A stretch of DNA of 64,000 nucleotides from Candidatus Hadarchaeota archaeon (lineage in GTDB: Archaea > Hadarchaeota > Hadarchaeia > Hadarchaeales > JAWBSP01), in contig CAYYWO010000001.1 of NCBI GenBank assembly GCA_964474885.1, forward strand, positions 102,722-166,721. The letters are read 5' to 3'. Below, in pieces: positions 38,570 through 44,870 of the stretch. Under the pieces are notes generated by a model. It made no database searches. It saw nothing but the letters and a program-made list of their open reading frames with translations, and was not told the origin of the DNA. Within the stretch, counting starts at the first letter, position 1; the number at the start of each line of letters is the position of its first letter. The position numbers and the translations under genes were made by a program.

Positions 38570-39277
38570 TTAAGCTAGCCCTATCGCTATCCAGTAAACG
38601 CCCGTGTTCCAGACTGAGCCAGCCCCTCTTCCATCTTCCTGAACGTAAATACGGAAGGAGGTCGTAGTCACATCATACGCCTGGACCCAAATGTTCTCTG
38701 AGGTTTCGGCAGGATTTTCTAGCGTGAGCAGAACTGTTGGTTTTTGGGAGAAGGGCACCGGGAAGTTTATAGGAGCCGTGACCCCCTCGCCCGAGAGCCC
38801 AGTGGTGACACGTCCCCACTGAATCAACAGTGTACCGAACTTGGCATAATTTTCCTCGATTCCTGGCATCTCGAGTAGCTCGAGCGTCCCCTCTACTATG
38901 AGGTCACCATTCACCCAGACTTTGTCCCACTGAAATCTAAACTTCTCGATTTGCCAGCTAACAGGTGGAGGTGTGTAAATATATCCACAAGGTGAGGTCA
39001 TCCTCAGATTACCACTAATCTCAAGTTTCTCGGCTGGGTTTTGGACACCTATTCCCAGTTTTCCCTGGATGCCCAAGTTAGCCCCCACTTTGACCGTGTT
39101 TTCGATCAAGATTCTGCCTGAGCCTGATGAAAGTCTTAAGGTCAGATTCTTGCCGCAGTTCGGATTTGTTCCAACCGTAGTGTTTTCAAAGCAAATGTTC
39201 TCGTAGACAGTGCTGGGTCCCGAAAGTGAGACAGAAAGGATCAATAGCAGTCCAATCAGAAAAGCGGCACGCCTCAT
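38570..39277 (-). CDS. Secreted protein with tail-fibre-like repeat and C-terminal gp53-like/H-lectin-like domain
   Basis: Signal peptide MRRAAFLIGLL; GKLGIGVQNPAEKLEISGN; FGTLLIQWG...FPVPFSQKP.V...WIAIG; ATGA overlap with the upstream gene. Confidence 0.72.
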   Translation of the reverse strand: MRRAAFLIGLLLILSVSLSGPSTVYENICFENTTVGTNPNCGKNLTLRLSSGSGRILIENTVKVGANLGIQGKLGIGVQNPAEKLEISGNLRMTSPCGYIYTPPPVSWQIEKFRFQWDKVWVNGDLIVEGTLELLEMPGIEENYAKFGTLLIQWGRVTTGLSGEGVTAPINFPVPFSQKPTVLLTLENPAETSENIWVQAYDVTTTSFRIYVQEDGRGAGSVWNTGVYWIAIGLA

Positions 39278-40026
39278 GTTCCCTCCCCCACGGCTATCCA
39301 GTTGATGAATACATCCCAAGAGTCGGATGGCGGGGAGATGTCACCGTCCCTTTGTTCCCACACTTTAAAGCCCCTTTTCGTAACAGAGGCAACCTGGATC
39401 CAGTAATCAAAGGAGTTCGGGTCTAGGTAGTTCGTCACATCCGCCGTGACGGCCACGCTGGGAGTGCTCTTGAATTCCCGTGGGAAAGTTATGGAGTAGT
39501 AGCCTTCATCGCTCAATCCTGTTCTTTGTCTGCCCCACTGGAGGAGCAAGGGCCCTATTTTCACCCAGTAAGCCTCGCCGGAGGTGTTGACATTGTACTT
39601 GCTCACCATGCCCTCCTCTTTGAAGCTAGTCATCAGGAGTCTCCCCAAAACGTTTAACCTGTGTATCTTCGTCCCTTCCCTCGAGACCGACAGCAGAACC
39701 TCGTCCCAGTTACCGAGCATGGTGATCTCTCCGTAAATGAAAGAGTTTGGATTGGCAAATTTCACCTTCCCGCAAACTTCCAGCCCTTGAATGGTACCCG
39801 TTGAGCCTATGCCCACCCTGCTCCCCGCGATTAGGTCGCCAGATATCGAGACAGAACTCTGTTCGATCTGCAGGACACCTGAGGGGGATGTCAGCCAGAG
39901 CCTAGGGGCTCGCAAGGTGGTGTTCTCGATGGAGATGTTCTCCCCGTCCACTTGGAACAGAGCATCTGAGAGCTTGACCATCAACAGCAGGCTGATTAAG
40001 CAGATGAGACAATATAACTTTCGCAT
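39274..40026 (-). CDS. Paralogous secreted tail-fibre-like protein
   Basis: Signal peptide MRKLYCLICL; SRVGIGSTGTIQGLEVCGK; IGPLLLQWG...FPREFKSTP.V...WIAVG. Confidence 0.72.
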   Translation of the reverse strand: MRKLYCLICLISLLLMVKLSDALFQVDGENISIENTTLRAPRLWLTSPSGVLQIEQSSVSISGDLIAGSRVGIGSTGTIQGLEVCGKVKFANPNSFIYGEITMLGNWDEVLLSVSREGTKIHRLNVLGRLLMTSFKEEGMVSKYNVNTSGEAYWVKIGPLLLQWGRQRTGLSDEGYYSITFPREFKSTPSVAVTADVTNYLDPNSFDYWIQVASVTKRGFKVWEQRDGDISPPSDSWDVFINWIAVGEGT

Positions 40027-43000: not shown

Positions 43001-44870
43001 TCCATTCATCGACAGGGTTTTGTCCATCGTTCGGCCCATACCAGGTGACTGAACCTATAATGTTCTCTGAGGGATTGGGGTCTGTTCCATAGGGCTGATT
43101 GTTCCAAGTTATCGTGGTCTCCTCCCAGCTGTCATCGCCACAGAAATGTAGAACGGCGGTGAATGAATCATCAGCCTTGTAGTCAGCCTCCGTGCAGTAG
43201 ATCATGAACTTGGCTGAAAGGATGGTCGAGCCAGGAGGTATGGAGGATAGATCAAACCGGAGATATGAGCGGTGATCATTTCTCACGAAGAACCGATAAT
43301 ATGATTCGACTCGGAGATCTGCGGTGGTTCCGTAATTTCCGTCCGGATCTCCCTCTCGGACCTTTGCATCGGCAACCGGTTCGAGTGTAACGGTTTTGCT
43401 GATACCACCACTCAGGAACATGAAGGTCTCGGGGATCTGGATGGCCCTCCTGAACGACCAGCCGTCCAAGTGCCATTCAGTGTTATCCATTTCTGCCCCT
43501 AGCCTCAAGTTTTCACCTATAATCCCCACATCTGGACCGCTGAGTTTCAGGTGTCCGTAAATCTCCAAGTTCTCTCTTATCGGAGTTCCCCAGTAGTAAG
43601 GTATGCCTATTCCAACCTTTCCTGAAACATATGAAACCTGTTCCGAACTGCCCAGCACATGAACGGAAGCCAGCAGATCCCTTAACTCGAAGTAGGTGAC
43701 AACGAATCTGTTATAGTGGGTTGAGGAGGTTCTAGCCCCCACTCCAGCCAACTTTCCCAACTCCCGCGGGGCATCTGTAAAGGAAAGAATAAGATCTCCT
43801 TCGTAGTATACCTCAAACTCGCCCGAATAATATACCACCCTGAAGCTGTGCCACCCGTTGTTTATAGCGAGGTCGTTTTCTGCAAGGACATCGCCGTCGT
43901 AAGTTATTCTAACTTTGTTCTCAGCTTGATCTAGGATTATTTGATATCCACCTGCGAATGAGTCTTCACTTTGAGGGGTGGTTGTGCATCCTACATACAG
44001 CCAGAGAGCCTCGCCTCCATTCCCATCCAGATTTGCGAACTCTACCTTACTGTAGAAACCTTTGGCAAGTTCCGCGTTATACTCCATTGCACCCCACTGA
44101 GAGGCTTCGTTCTCGGTGAGCACGATCCTTTTTAGGTTTTCATCGAACCTCGCAACTCCTTTGAATTCAGCTCTAGGATAGAAGGACATGTCCTCGTACG
44201 CCCATATCTTACCCAAGTCTATTGGAGAATCTGAGGTGAGTTTCAGGGTTAGGAGGGAACCATAGGCTGGATGGGTTGTTATTGAGGTGTTTTCGAGGTA
44301 CAGGTTTTCAATGATAGTTCCGGGGTAAATCTTCGGTGGTGGGGGAACAACAGGAACTTGGAGGGGTGTTCCCAACTCGAAGACCATGGTGTTATTCGAG
44401 GGTCTGTGAACCAGGGTCAGCTTATCTAAAATATGAAACTTGGCGTTGTCTGTACCTTCCAGCAGGAGTATGAGCTTTCCTGTTTTCACCGTGTTGCCCG
44501 TTACATGGAGGATGAATTTCCTAGCCCAGCTGGGGGCATCCGAGTTTAAGGCGAGGACCTCGCTCCCCTCCCGTAAACCATCTACTCTAGCTATCAAGTC
44601 GAATGACTCCCCAGAACCGTTCTTTACGGTTCCTTGAATAACCATGCTTAGATCGGAAAGCTTGAGCTCATCTCCACCCTGCTGTAGAAACATAAGCTCG
44701 GTAAAATTATCCCAAGCGAGAGTTTGGGCTAGGCTCAGTGATACCTTGGGCGATTTCCGGGGGGTGACGGCCCCCACGGTTTTGCTCAAGGCAGCCTGAT
44801 AAATGGCCGCTCCCGCAAGCACGACCGCTATCAGCAAAACAGTTGCAACTACTGGGGATATCCCCTTCAT
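40029..44870 (-). CDS. Giant type IV pilin-like multidomain adhesin (lectin, DNRLRE/CBM96-like, DUF2341, split PA14, three CBM-like repeats, tail-fibre-like C-terminus)
   Basis: Class III signal MKG|ISPVVATVLLIAVV; QQGGDEL; PVADAKV...RSYLRFDLSSIP; DLSDLRFV...IYMYYGNP; LRWEGWL...ATDDA; IGGLLIQWG...WMAIG. Confidence 0.8.
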   Translation of the reverse strand: MKGISPVVATVLLIAVVLAGAAIYQAALSKTVGAVTPRKSPKVSLSLAQTLAWDNFTELMFLQQGGDELKLSDLSMVIQGTVKNGSGESFDLIARVDGLREGSEVLALNSDAPSWARKFILHVTGNTVKTGKLILLLEGTDNAKFHILDKLTLVHRPSNNTMVFELGTPLQVPVVPPPPKIYPGTIIENLYLENTSITTHPAYGSLLTLKLTSDSPIDLGKIWAYEDMSFYPRAEFKGVARFDENLKRIVLTENEASQWGAMEYNAELAKGFYSKVEFANLDGNGGEALWLYVGCTTTPQSEDSFAGGYQIILDQAENKVRITYDGDVLAENDLAINNGWHSFRVVYYSGEFEVYYEGDLILSFTDAPRELGKLAGVGARTSSTHYNRFVVTYFELRDLLASVHVLGSSEQVSYVSGKVGIGIPYYWGTPIRENLEIYGHLKLSGPDVGIIGENLRLGAEMDNTEWHLDGWSFRRAIQIPETFMFLSGGISKTVTLEPVADAKVREGDPDGNYGTTADLRVESYYRFFVRNDHRSYLRFDLSSIPPGSTILSAKFMIYCTEADYKADDSFTAVLHFCGDDSWEETTITWNNQPYGTDPNPSENIIGSVTWYGPNDGQNPVDEWIKWAIPYDLVQRELDSDNLISLMMRTDIEAERAYGVWAEFNSREATSERPVLQVRYAEPGASVVRNAPDVQLLLTLDTKSLISQGKLKPDLSDLRFVTGDGTEIPWWVESGKNTTSTKIWIRVPSTPSKIYMYYGNPSATKSRLSDNIQATMDEGLRYFYYAGTNFDSYRGTDVYGAPNKCGGVVDNPAYGTTEKVAATFKGTHEVLRNGEIRPNNWIMFVYRVDPEDMMAPGVCCSKGSNFDTEYHRDHDGDGSHSFAIDVQAGALETEYEEVELRQFISPPIPAGSSLSGSFYWTTNGEFDQVTIKLEVLDGDSWSTVTSFSGEVGGATDWTSATGSYTTSSEVEWVRLYIYVEDYGGSVGDRYNWLWIDSVSLLSDGQERIVNGNFAQDIAVLPDWDWKVTYTTGDDSLATLVGQEHSADNSACLCVISGNGSQKDAEWWQSIGPIPPNTTIKIQFWYCYRGDGELDYENVQVKIRQDGSWESWGWCTDESHSVTTKKWYLFKKEYTTTGTVDNFLIHIGVRDDGDGQVSAILVDDLSLEVIDQAGDWENKTTNGKMADTDGDGQPDNWVLGDHSDPGETDKQPGWTTEDHTGDGSGSVKVWGYDRPWDGTTTYIGYAYWSQDLPTEIPAGYEVRGSLWYCYGGDGELDVEEIRLEVLEGSEWKTICSRYLSGSHSVSTGVWYQMQGQMTVRSSVTAVRLYIYVKDQAGIGGSEESWIAVDDVIIEARKPGTNSWEDATQNLSLRWEGWLLPPESGTYQLLVATDDACQLYENNRVVISQWRPQPPTLHKCKVDLVASVPVPVRLEWNQGEGEWRLGLGWVKPGGSITFPIPKQHLWCRKPALWEPEEIQVGQEQTFARIPYIDTSYPVLGPLKVRRLEASLENSENIGGDENWWWIRIGGLLIQWGQIKSGLTSEGGFSVSFPRPFNCLPVVIVTPEIETASSAENIWVCQVYDVSPLGFKAWLQQDKVNTGVDWDIPIHWMAIGW

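Follow-up and report, generated by a model that had tools for sequence, protein, structure and literature searches.

A putative decorated minor-pilin operon with a lectin-tipped, MAT-like fibre in an uncultivated vent archaeon

We propose, with a probability of about 0.8, that an uncultivated vent archaeon encodes a decorated minor-pilin operon, in which a modular-pilin adhesin carries a lectin-tipped fibre resembling the mosaic adhesive trimer (MAT) fibres of Bdellovibrio bacteriovorus. The giant pilin is accompanied by two small paralogues, P0002 and P0003, and some physical co-assembly of all three proteins seems rather probable to us. Their arrangement as a 1:1:1 heterotrimer of the giant and the two mini-fibres is a tentative model, with the odds leaning against it.

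Gene organization of the locus

The window, that is, the whole stretch of 64,000 nucleotides that was analysed, contains three abutting genes on the minus strand (38570-44870) in the order giant, middle P0002 and small P0003, next to two further genes for pilin-like proteins, A and B:

45812..48310, minus strand: gene A, 832-aa pilin-like protein whose hydrophobic N-terminus follows R-G; its insertion of some 580 aa holds DUF2341, Laminin_G_3 (ConA-like) and a legume-lectin-like domain (Pfam)
44892..45818, minus strand: gene B, pilin-like protein, 308 aa when MVDESGIS is taken as its start, in an ORF that extends to 45977
40029..44870, minus strand: giant, predicted modular pilin of 1613 aa, start MKGISPVV
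39274..40026, minus strand: P0002, middle mini-fibre of 250 aa, with a Sec-type signal (by inspection), stalk module, neck and lectin tip
38570..39277, minus strand: P0003, small mini-fibre of 235 aa, with the same architecture as P0002

The gene coupling claimed in the preliminary description was read in the DNA at both junctions. The giant and P0002 are separated by a 2-nt gap (TGG TGA aa ATG), and the ATG of P0003 lies within the stop of P0002 in an ATGA overlap (ACATGAGG). Such coupling is weak evidence of joint assembly, because overlaps are common in compact genomes; this genome measures 1.18 Mb. The module said to be shared by the three proteins was also recovered, as an N-terminal stalk module, a neck and a C-terminal Gp53-like_C/H-type-lectin domain common to all of them.

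Tail-fibre assembly proteins are encoded downstream of phage fibre genes and are not known to be related to the fibre that they serve. With their genes directly downstream of the fibre gene and coupled to it, the small proteins could be assembly helpers or caps for the tip of the giant, not permanent fibre chains. However, both are full paralogues of its stalk, neck and tip, and two of them are retained in both lineages that hold the triplet, which makes such a role highly improbable.

The giant is a predicted modular pilin

In both same-genus genomes (G001 and G002), the row IleRS - A' - B' - C' - S8e contains plain pilin-like genes, whose products measure about 240 aa (A'), about 250 aa (B') and 148-165 aa (C'; Pilin_N E 5e-8 in G002). 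Residues 1-168/172 of the giant correspond to the whole of C' in the two genomes at 32-37% identity. Residues 1-94 and 674-831 of A align with A' of both at 37-53% identity, and residues 95-673 of A are therefore an insertion. Gene B is collinear with B' of both (36-38% identity) and 30% identical to a 266-aa pilin-like protein on contig 12; it matched no Pfam family at E 0.05. Compared with the sister genomes, C' here carries about 1440 extra C-terminal residues and A' about 580. The plain pilin trio occupies the same site in the sister genomes, and we therefore regard the giant as a modular type IV pilin and not as a provirus remnant. By sequence it appears to be of the PilB/PilC type, since its complete pilin module is extended by a further one and A and B are encoded together with it.

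The flanks of the locus are housekeeping genes (TFB, Gar1, S8e, IleRS, RFC and MetRS). No virion, terminase or integrase genes were found beside it among the scanned ORFs of the window, and the only Phage_integrase match in the genome lies on contig 34. Together with the synteny with pilin operons, these results bear out the earlier view that the locus is not a provirus.

The giant begins with a pilin module and a Pro-rich linker, followed by a split stalk module, carbohydrate-binding modules, a neck and a lectin tip. The class III pilin signal that had been attributed to it agrees with an archaeal pilin N-terminus recognized by Pilin_N (32.1 bits, cut-off 25.2) and TIGR02537 (20.9 bits, cut-off 20). 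The CBM-type insertions total about 1250 residues. Its parts are as follows:

44367..44870, minus strand: pilin module, residues 1-168; the N-terminus is of class III type, with K-G before a hydrophobic helix (by inspection); Pilin_N and TIGR02537
44226..44318, minus strand: stalk module part 1, residues 185-215, with EN..EN(T) and L.L.S.S motifs; HMM iE 2e-6
43641..44198, minus strand: insertion between the stalk pieces, residues 225-410, weakly ConA-like (3keto-disac_hyd E 0.0017 and Laminin_G_3 E 0.048, both under cut-off)
43524..43628, minus strand: stalk module part 2, residues 415-449, one G.VGIG...LE.G unit; HMM iE 2e-4
42837..43394, minus strand: CBM96, residues 493-678; Pfam E 6.5e-23
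42552..42734, minus strand: DUF2341, residues 713-773; Pfam E 8e-14
41436..41777, minus strand: CBM_4_9, residues 1032-1145; Pfam E 5.5e-8
40515..40787, minus strand: PA14, residues 1362-1452; Pfam E 6.6e-12
40032..40385, minus strand: neck and Gp53-like_C/H-type-lectin tip, residues 1496-1613; C-module HMM iE 5e-34, PF21882 34.3 bits

The lectin tip

All three proteins score above the Pfam gathering cut-off of 24.9 bits for Gp53-like_C (PF21882), with 34.3 bits for the giant, 32.5 for P0002 and 37.9 for P0003, and they provide the only matches in the genome (three from four scored candidates). H_lectin (PF09458, cut-off 24 bits) is passed by two of the three, P0002 with 25.8 and P0003 with 34.5 bits, the giant falling under the cut-off with 14.8. 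Three-way alignment of the last 144 or so residues yields 31-38% identity and 30 invariant columns, including LL.QWG, FP..F and W.A.G. An AF2 model was made for P0003 only, from a 12-row alignment, and has block-mean pLDDT values of 56-90 over residues 141-235. The Foldseek comparison proposed earlier for the C-terminal domain was run on this model and matched the R1 pyocin fibre (6cl5, E 1.2e-4; 6cxb), AP22 gp53 (4mtm, 4e-4), 3wmp (4.5e-4), the snail agglutinin HPA (2ce6, 1.9e-3) and 2vm9. The model thus suggests that the P0003 tip adopts a beta-sandwich lectin fold like gp53 or HPA, and the gp53-like tip first recognized from motifs is supported by Pfam, by PHROG tail-fibre families and by Foldseek. 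By analogy with the solved relatives, the head of the tip would be trimeric.

The GalNAc-contact residues of HPA, which we take to be Asn61, Arg63, His84 and Tyr89, were compared through a weak profile alignment to 2ce6 (E 2.5e-3). HPA-type contacts are not kept in this alignment, in which family-invariant Trp stands opposite Arg63 and Tyr89, and a variable position opposite His84. Since Trp stands at HPA contact positions, the HPA ligand is not transferable to these tips.

The tip also matches viral contigs, and with the PHROG matches this would suit a provirus or tailocin remnant, or silent cassettes that switch the tip of the giant by recombination or inversion. The resemblance to viral proteins is confined to the last 90 or so residues, and the earlier reading of a domesticated fibre would presuppose one particular direction of transfer. 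This origin is largely refuted by the housekeeping flanks, the synteny of the site with the plain pilin operons and the position of the sole Phage_integrase match. In addition, the longest DNA repeat between the paralogues is 29 nt (79% identical), no flanking inverted repeats were found, and all three genes lie on the same strand with their own signals. P0003 has 31 listed strain differences, of which 21 affect the third base of a codon and 23 leave the amino acid unchanged (binomial p 9e-5), a bias that points to purifying selection on a real gene.

The stalk module

An HMM built from the N-terminal module of six small proteins matches the giant twice in the correct order, at the two stalk parts given above, between which large insertions split the module. 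It also matches the metagenome giant described below at residues 184-219 and 413-452; the pilin-like neighbours A and B, taken as negative controls, gave E 0.3-0.4. Contig 12 encodes a 645-aa pilin-fused fibre with three stalk units, and these match the MAT structures Bd2133 (8ond, E 1.7e-6), 8ojn (4.8e-5) and 8oml (0.006). The profile of the small proteins reached 8ol4 with E 0.029, 8ond with 0.036 and AP22 gp53 (4mtm) with 0.01. By sequence, the link of the small proteins to MAT fibres is therefore weak when drawn directly and stronger through the contig-12 paralogue. The interpretation of G.VGIG...LE.G as a trimeric-fibre unit has held, with matches to the Bdellovibrio MAT structures 8ond, 8ojn and 8ol4 and with agreement from the available part of the MAT paper (PMC10769870).

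The mature N-terminus of the mini-fibres is the stalk module itself; in the pilin-fused proteins the stalk comes after the pilin domain and a Pro-rich linker. The mini-fibres thus start exactly at the point where the fibre of the giant starts. The monomer model of P0003 has pLDDT below 50 over residues 19-140, which fits a partner-requiring fold and a shallow alignment equally.

Conservation of the triplet

The conserved triplets for which a search of archaeal genomes had been proposed were found once: a metagenome locus (L014) encodes a giant (true start MRGISPL), a middle and a small protein in the same order, and its junctions are again a 2-nt gap and an ATGA overlap, whereas the triplet is absent from the other 65 genomes of the phylum. 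A further locus, L015, is 99.5% identical to L014, and the triplet is hence known from two independent lineages only. Orthologues of the two lineages are 55, 58 and 51% identical, compared with 29-38% between paralogues (neck and tip), and the giant pair and the small pair are starred clades.

Such divergence of neck and tip leaves room for different specificities. Each protein starts from its own codon and bears a signal sequence of its own, and in viral contigs (L020-L025) large ORFs for fibres precede small ones with the same tip module, like alternative tips. The small proteins might on these grounds be independent trimeric lectins, tandem duplicates with their own specificities, either secreted or attached to glycans or the S-layer, and not joined to the giant. 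We consider this unlikely. A C-terminal anchor is absent from both small proteins, a stalk module on a free lectin would be without reason, and order and junctions are identical in two lineages; a genome of this size would also hardly keep two freely diffusing lectins.

A distant small relative, P0009, starts with K-K-G-V-S and a hydrophobic stretch, which by inspection looks like a class III signal.

Proposed assembly

Prepilin peptidase (Peptidase_A24) is encoded on contig 11, and T2SSE has four matches in the genome. T2SSF/TadC was found only on contig 3 (C3:94192-95397), adjoining an ATPase and a 161-aa Pilin_N pilin; the window contains no pilus ATPase or TadC. We propose that the peptidase would process A, B and the giant, and that one copy of each would be placed, next to the others, where a type IV pilus made by the contig-3 machinery begins, at its tip; this placement is modelled on bacterial minor-pilin tip complexes. 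Because the stalk and tip families are trimeric in solved cases, yet only one chain here is tethered through a pilin, the two Sec-secreted paralogues may supply the other two chains of the trimer. The product would be a 1:1:1 heterotrimeric stalk with a lectin head, from which the CBM insertions of the giant would loop outward, and head and CBMs might recognize the glycans of a polymer, of a partner cell or of some surface.

Several observations speak against the heterotrimer. The available part of the MAT paper presents trimerisation as an invariant property of these fibres (PMC10769870). AP22 gp53C is described as a trimer with a lectin-like head that forms a club-shaped fibre. Both of these solved relatives of described oligomeric state (MAT and gp53) are trimers of one chain. 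Pyocin fibres and snail agglutinin are also trimers of one chain, and we know of no heterotrimeric member of these fibre or lectin families. No small paralogue lies beside the gene of the 645-aa contig-12 fibre, whose C-terminal domain occurs nowhere else in the assembly, and pilin-fused fibres therefore seem able to lack partner chains. In addition, the mini-fibre P0009 apparently bears what looks like its own class III signal.

Three separate homotrimers in one structure would agree with the homotrimer rule of these relatives and with the partner-less contig-12 fibre, and would still account for the conservation of the triplet and for small proteins that lack an anchor. The giant would then form a homotrimer with three pilin modules on flexible Pro-rich linkers, and the mini-fibre homotrimers would dock end-to-end or as branches, comparable to the long tail fibres of phage T4, in which homotrimers of related proteins are linked into a chain. 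In a Bd2133 crystal reported in the MAT paper (PMC10769870), the tip pocket of one fibre is occupied by an N-terminal peptide from a second fibre. However, no docking motif was identified in the proteins, and three giants with about 1250 insertion residues each would probably crowd a very short stalk. Docked homotrimers are an unlikely arrangement in our estimate, level with free lectins and below the heterotrimer.

Comparison with known systems

Makarova et al. (2016, PMC4858521) proposed that large DUF2341 proteins encoded in archaeal loci for type IV pili serve as tip adhesins similar to PilY1. DUF2341 occurs here in gene A and the giant, and both sets are predicted adhesins linked to pilin sets; the available part of the article mentions neither mini-fibres nor an H-type lectin tip, nor a MAT-like stalk joined to a pilin.

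Similar to PilA/PilB/PilC of Streptococcus sanguinis (PMC9934059), the locus encodes three pilin-like proteins together, two of which have bulky adhesive modules behind the pilin module, including ConA-like lectin modules. In contrast to that system, the present one is archaeal, the part added to the pilin is a fibre of the trimer type, about 1440 residues long, and not a monomeric domain, two extra non-pilin paralogues are present, and the pilus-tip location is a prediction.

The tips resemble AP22 gp53 (4mtm), the R1/R2 pyocin fibres (6cl5, 6cl6), Helix pomatia agglutinin (2ce6), SLL-2 (3wmp) and discoidin II (2vm9) in Pfam family and fold, at only about 20-24% identity. They differ in being cellular and archaeal, in forming three paralogues in a row and in that the HPA ligand-contact positions are not conserved.

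The MAT fibres of Bdellovibrio bacteriovorus, e.g. Bd2133 (8ond, PMC10769870), share the G.VGIG..P...L.V.G stalk units with detectable sequence similarity, interchangeable tips on one stalk type (here the giant versus the 645-aa protein), lectin-fold tips and a cell-surface adhesin role, which is predicted here. The MAT tips named in the available part of that paper are S74, TNF-like, C-type-lectin and two new sandwich tips, H-type lectin not being among them. MAT proteins are bacterial, Sec-secreted and homotrimeric with long stalks, whereas the giant and the mini-fibres have one stalk unit and the contig-12 fibre three. Unlike in MAT proteins, the stalk of the giant follows an archaeal type IV pilin module in one chain and is broken by the CBM-type insertions, and the fibre is accompanied by two mini-paralogues.

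A triplet of abutting genes with a common stalk and tip

Three abutting minus-strand genes fill positions 38570-44870 of the window:

40029-44870, minus strand, giant pilin-fused fibre protein, 1613 aa
39274-40026, minus strand, middle gene, mini-fibre P0002, 250 aa
38570-39277, minus strand, small gene, mini-fibre P0003, 235 aa

The junction DNA revealed a 2-nt gap between the TGA of the giant and the start of P0002, and an ATGA overlap between P0002 and P0003, as the preliminary description had it. The C-terminal domain claimed there for all three chains is also borne out: Gp53-like_C was found at the C-terminus of each protein above the Pfam gathering cut-off, and a three-way alignment of the last ~144 residues yielded 31-38% identity with 30 invariant columns. 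The H_lectin cut-off of Pfam was passed by two of the three proteins. The assembly (1.18 Mb, 92% complete) contains no Gp53-like_C copies besides these three.

The N-terminal module was modelled by an HMM built from six small family members. It matched the giant in two ordered pieces, residues 185-215 and then 415-449, confirming that the N-terminal motifs are common to the three chains; the metagenome orthologue of the giant was likewise matched in two pieces, and A and B, the pilin-like genes next to the giant, gave no match. Because its N-module is split into two ordered pieces, the giant looks like a mini-fibre carrying two large insertions. The first, of ~200 aa, is weakly ConA-like, and the second is a ~1050-aa block with CBM96, DUF2341, CBM_4_9 and PA14 by Pfam.

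The G.VGIG...LE.G unit of the stalk is widespread, with 2503 matches at E<=1e-3 in a profile search of 1.84 billion representatives; among the 150 matches listed, most are 1000-7000 aa long and contain the unit 5-39 times. The same genome contains a second fibre locus on contig 12 (L029):

1095-3032 and 3044-3844, minus strand, second fibre locus; also 3886-4179, 4439-5149 and 5507-5929

This locus encodes a 266-aa B-like pilin followed by a 645-aa pilin-fused protein, which combines the entire N-module and two additional G.VGIG units with a C-terminal domain of ~240 aa that is unique in the assembly. The fibre gene adjoins a transglutaminase-like gene and a gene for a 236-aa secreted protein, homologues of which follow the triplet in the metagenome locus L014. 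The stalk region of the contig-12 protein matches the mosaic adhesive trimer (MAT) fibres of Bdellovibrio (Bd2133 8ond, E 1.7e-6; 8ojn, E 4.8e-5), in line with the earlier view that the repeat is typical of trimeric fibres, and with the small-protein profile 8ol4 and 8ond give weak matches (E 0.03-0.04). MAT fibres are described as having beta-helix stalks, mosaic tips and an invariant 'meandering trimerization' (PMC10769870). An Atlas look-alike search with residues 20-145 of P0003 peaked at a score of 0.88, below the level at which the tool indicates more than a lead; matches at ~0.8 were viral clusters without names and fibre-like families, at lead level at most.

The tip resembles phage fibre tips and H-type lectins

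AF2 with a 12-row alignment modelled P0003 residues 141-235 at block-mean pLDDT of 56-90; from the single sequence, the mean pLDDT of P0003 was 34. Foldseek matched the model to the R1/R2 pyocin fibre tips and phage AP22 gp53, which supports the gp53-like tip proposed previously, and also to the coral lectin SLL-2, the Helix agglutinins and discoidin II. Profile searches against PDB sequences concur with this placement, and PHROGs assigned tail-fibre and lectin families to the last ~90 residues only. Positions that contact GalNAc in Helix agglutinin align with family-invariant tryptophans. An inter-chain sugar site is plausible. AP22 gp53 is described as club-shaped and trimeric, with a lectin-like head resembling Helix agglutinin.

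The giant as a modular pilin of a minor-pilin-like operon

The pilin signal reported for the giant was corroborated by Pilin_N (32.1 bits) and by TIGR02537, slightly over cut-off, indicating an archaeal pilin N-terminus. Two sister genomes of the same genus (G001 and G002) carry, between IleRS and S8e, three short genes for pilin-like proteins, A' (~240 aa), B' (~250 aa) and C', the last being a plain pilin of 148-165 aa (Pilin_N E 5e-8). B of the present genome is collinear with B'. Gene A differs in length:

45812-48310, gene A, pilin-like; residues 1-94 and 674-831 align with the ~240-aa A' of the sister genomes

Since only these two segments match A', the ~580 residues between them (95-673), with DUF2341, Laminin_G_3 and a legume-lectin-like domain, represent an insertion. 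One part of the insertion resembles TafC, a family of haloarchaeal fimbrial proteins, but at 53 bits falls far short of the 410-bit cut-off. Residues 1-168/172 of the giant align with C' over its full length; therefore, all beyond the Pro-rich linker has been added. A search with giant residues 1-230 found matches in 9 of the 66 genomes of the phylum, and the matching ORFs are 142-326 aa long with matches ending by residue 168, the two fibre proteins of this genome excepted. As the pilin module equals C' at a syntenic minor-pilin-like site, the giant is, from its sequence, a modular pilin within such an operon. A prepilin peptidase is encoded in the genome, and the only TadC-like gene adjoins an ATPase gene and a 161-aa pilin gene on contig 3; the peptidase, the TadC-like gene and its ATPase all lie outside the window.

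Further genes were noted in the window:

55848-58012, minus strand, an uninterrupted row of five small ORFs (144, 119, 118, 141 and 223 aa)
59293-63482, plus strand, GH38 alpha-mannosidase gene, then a 548-aa multi-pass membrane protein

All five small ORFs have an N-terminal hydrophobic stretch. Four lack a Pfam match at E<=0.1, and the 144-aa ORF has only weak ones (best E 0.011), all under cut-offs; they may be a further pilin-like or minor-pilin set. The glycan-processing GH38 gene lies ~15 kb away from the adhesin operon, and the 548-aa protein matches no Pfam family. The strongest DUF2341 match of the genome (124 bits; contig 45, 135-383) falls in an ORF of 696 aa at the contig start, which may encode a third large adhesin.

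Provirus and cassette readings

The locus was held not to be a provirus, and this stands: its flanks are housekeeping genes (TFB, Gar1, S8e, IleRS, RFC, MetRS and HMG-CoA reductase), it is syntenic with the sister pilin operons, and the sole Phage_integrase match of the assembly is on contig 34. Viral contigs match the tip domain only, at ~32% identity; their scan gave 8 loci from 99 matches, every match confined to residues 141 onward. Silent cassettes or a shufflon were also rejected, as DNA repeats between the paralogues do not exceed 29 nt.

On viral contigs L020-L025, the same tip module closes large fibre ORFs of 1192-1199 aa or the ends of such ORFs, and small ORFs of 125-211 aa after them repeat it in tandem or inverted, for example:

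2701-6276, plus strand, large ORF of L024; 6285-6689, minus strand, its small ORF
5641-6273, 6300-6686 and 7872-8246, ORFs of L021

We take this arrangement to resemble the alternative-tip cassettes found in invertible tail-fibre segments of the Mu Gin or P1 Cin type.

The triplet is rare and conserved in one further lineage

The triplet family is rare. It is absent from all 65 remaining genomes of the phylum (1/66 positive in the phylum and 1/65 in the class, the present genome), and among relatives 2 of 41 genomes match, counting this one and a match at E 0.006. Word-index searches recovered almost nothing: P0003 alone matched 2 of 870 candidates, one being P0003 itself, and alignment A4 gave 3 matches among 8000 scored candidates. 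A genome-contig scan reduced 19 pattern matches to one locus, on a Planctomycetales contig (residues 55-195 at 29%).

The metagenome scan revealed one further lineage with the triplet, L014; a second locus, L015, shares 99.5% identity with L014 and is not independent. The L014 giant (1459 aa) has the same domains, and giant, middle and small genes follow in order with an identical 2-nt gap and ATGA overlap. Orthologues are 55, 58 and 51% identical between the two loci and paralogues 29-38%, and with good support the two giants group in one clade and the two small proteins in another; hence the triplication is older than the split, with all three copies retained. Upstream, L014 has an A-like gene in divergent orientation; downstream come genes for a transglutaminase-like protein, a secreted protein of 235 aa and a B-like pilin. 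Homologues of these accessory genes are present at the contig-12 fibre locus. The parts change places between loci yet remain together.

Near-identical fragments of the triplet locus occur in four further DNA runs, and a diverged strain in one; stretches that these fragments leave uncovered are uninformative. RNA is not represented among the six runs listed. Among the 31 P0003 strain differences listed, 21 are at third codon positions and 23 are synonymous; 17 further differences lie outside this list. Run X4, which holds the diverged strain, has tyrosine in place of the two N-terminal cysteines of P0003 (window 39156 and 39192, codons 41 and 29), so these cysteines are not needed for a conserved disulfide.

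A possible heterotrimer

A complex was predicted for the giant neck and tip (143 aa), P0002 95-250 and P0003 92-235, with the giant as partner and alignments of 12 rows for each chain. The runs scored 0.51, 0.31 and 0.28, a median of 0.31 against a mark of 0.32; controls gave 0.00, 0.00 and 0.19. This outcome weighs on neither side. We give a 1:1:1 heterotrimer of the three proteins a probability of about one third. A single pilin-tethered giant at the pilus tip would recruit the two Sec-secreted paralogues and thereby complete a MAT-like stalk and an H-type-lectin head. The product would be a trimeric lectin fibre made of three different gene products, one alone a type IV pilin, and its asymmetric head could hold up to three distinct inter-chain sugar sites.

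Some co-assembly is favoured, because the mini-fibres have no anchor, carry Sec-type signal sequences by inspection and start, when mature, at the fibre start point of the pilin-fused proteins; because the giant retains short stalk pieces despite its huge insertions; and because the triplet and its junctions are conserved. The 1:1:1 composition in particular would follow by analogy: should A, B and the giant each be present once at the pilus tip, like the pilins of bacterial tip complexes, one tethered chain would require two more for a trimeric stalk and head. Against a heterotrimer, the solved relatives with a described oligomeric state, MAT fibres (PMC10769870) and gp53, are homotrimers; the contig-12 pilin-fused fibre, with its unique C-terminal domain, has no mini-fibre at its locus; and P0009, a distant small relative, seemingly has a class-III-like N-terminus by inspection. 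Separate homotrimers that dock to each other would fit the homotrimeric relatives; we rate this reading, and equally that of three independent lectins, as somewhat less likely than the heterotrimer. For the heterotrimer, the hetero-hexameric fibre complex of paralogues described for phiKZ is a loose precedent only.

Comparison with known systems

The kinds of component are already known: modular pilins, MAT or tail-fibre stalks, and H-type-lectin or Gp53-like tips. Judged by title or abstract, none of the papers found in our literature searches describes a MAT-like or H-lectin fibre joined to an archaeal pilin, or a heterotrimeric tail-fibre tip; the conserved mini-fibre pair, the archaeal combination of parts and the before/after contrast between sister species are likewise in none of them. 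A heterotrimer, if true, would to our knowledge be the first among tail-fibre, MAT and H-lectin proteins, and a new way for a filament with a single attachment point to bear a trimeric adhesin. The mini-fibre pair is a clean test case for heteromeric fibres of this type, and heteromery bears on the mounting of trimeric receptor-binding modules at single-attachment sites and on fibre-tip engineering.

We know of almost nothing on adhesin carriage by archaeal pili. The sister-species comparison documents a change from plain minor pilins to lectin-bearing modular pilins through insertion and fusion, and links archaeal pilins to the MAT/tail-fibre architecture, solved until now in bacteria and phages. 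The array of CBM96, CBM4_9, PA14, ConA-like and H-lectin domains points to glycan attachment in hydrothermal settings, which, given the 1.18-Mb genome, could be attachment to a partner cell. Among the closest parallels are the PilA/B/C tip complex of S. sanguinis, which likewise includes a lectin-bearing modular pilin (PMC9934059), and the DUF2341 proteins of archaeal pilus loci, proposed as tip adhesins by Makarova et al. 2016 (PMC4858521).
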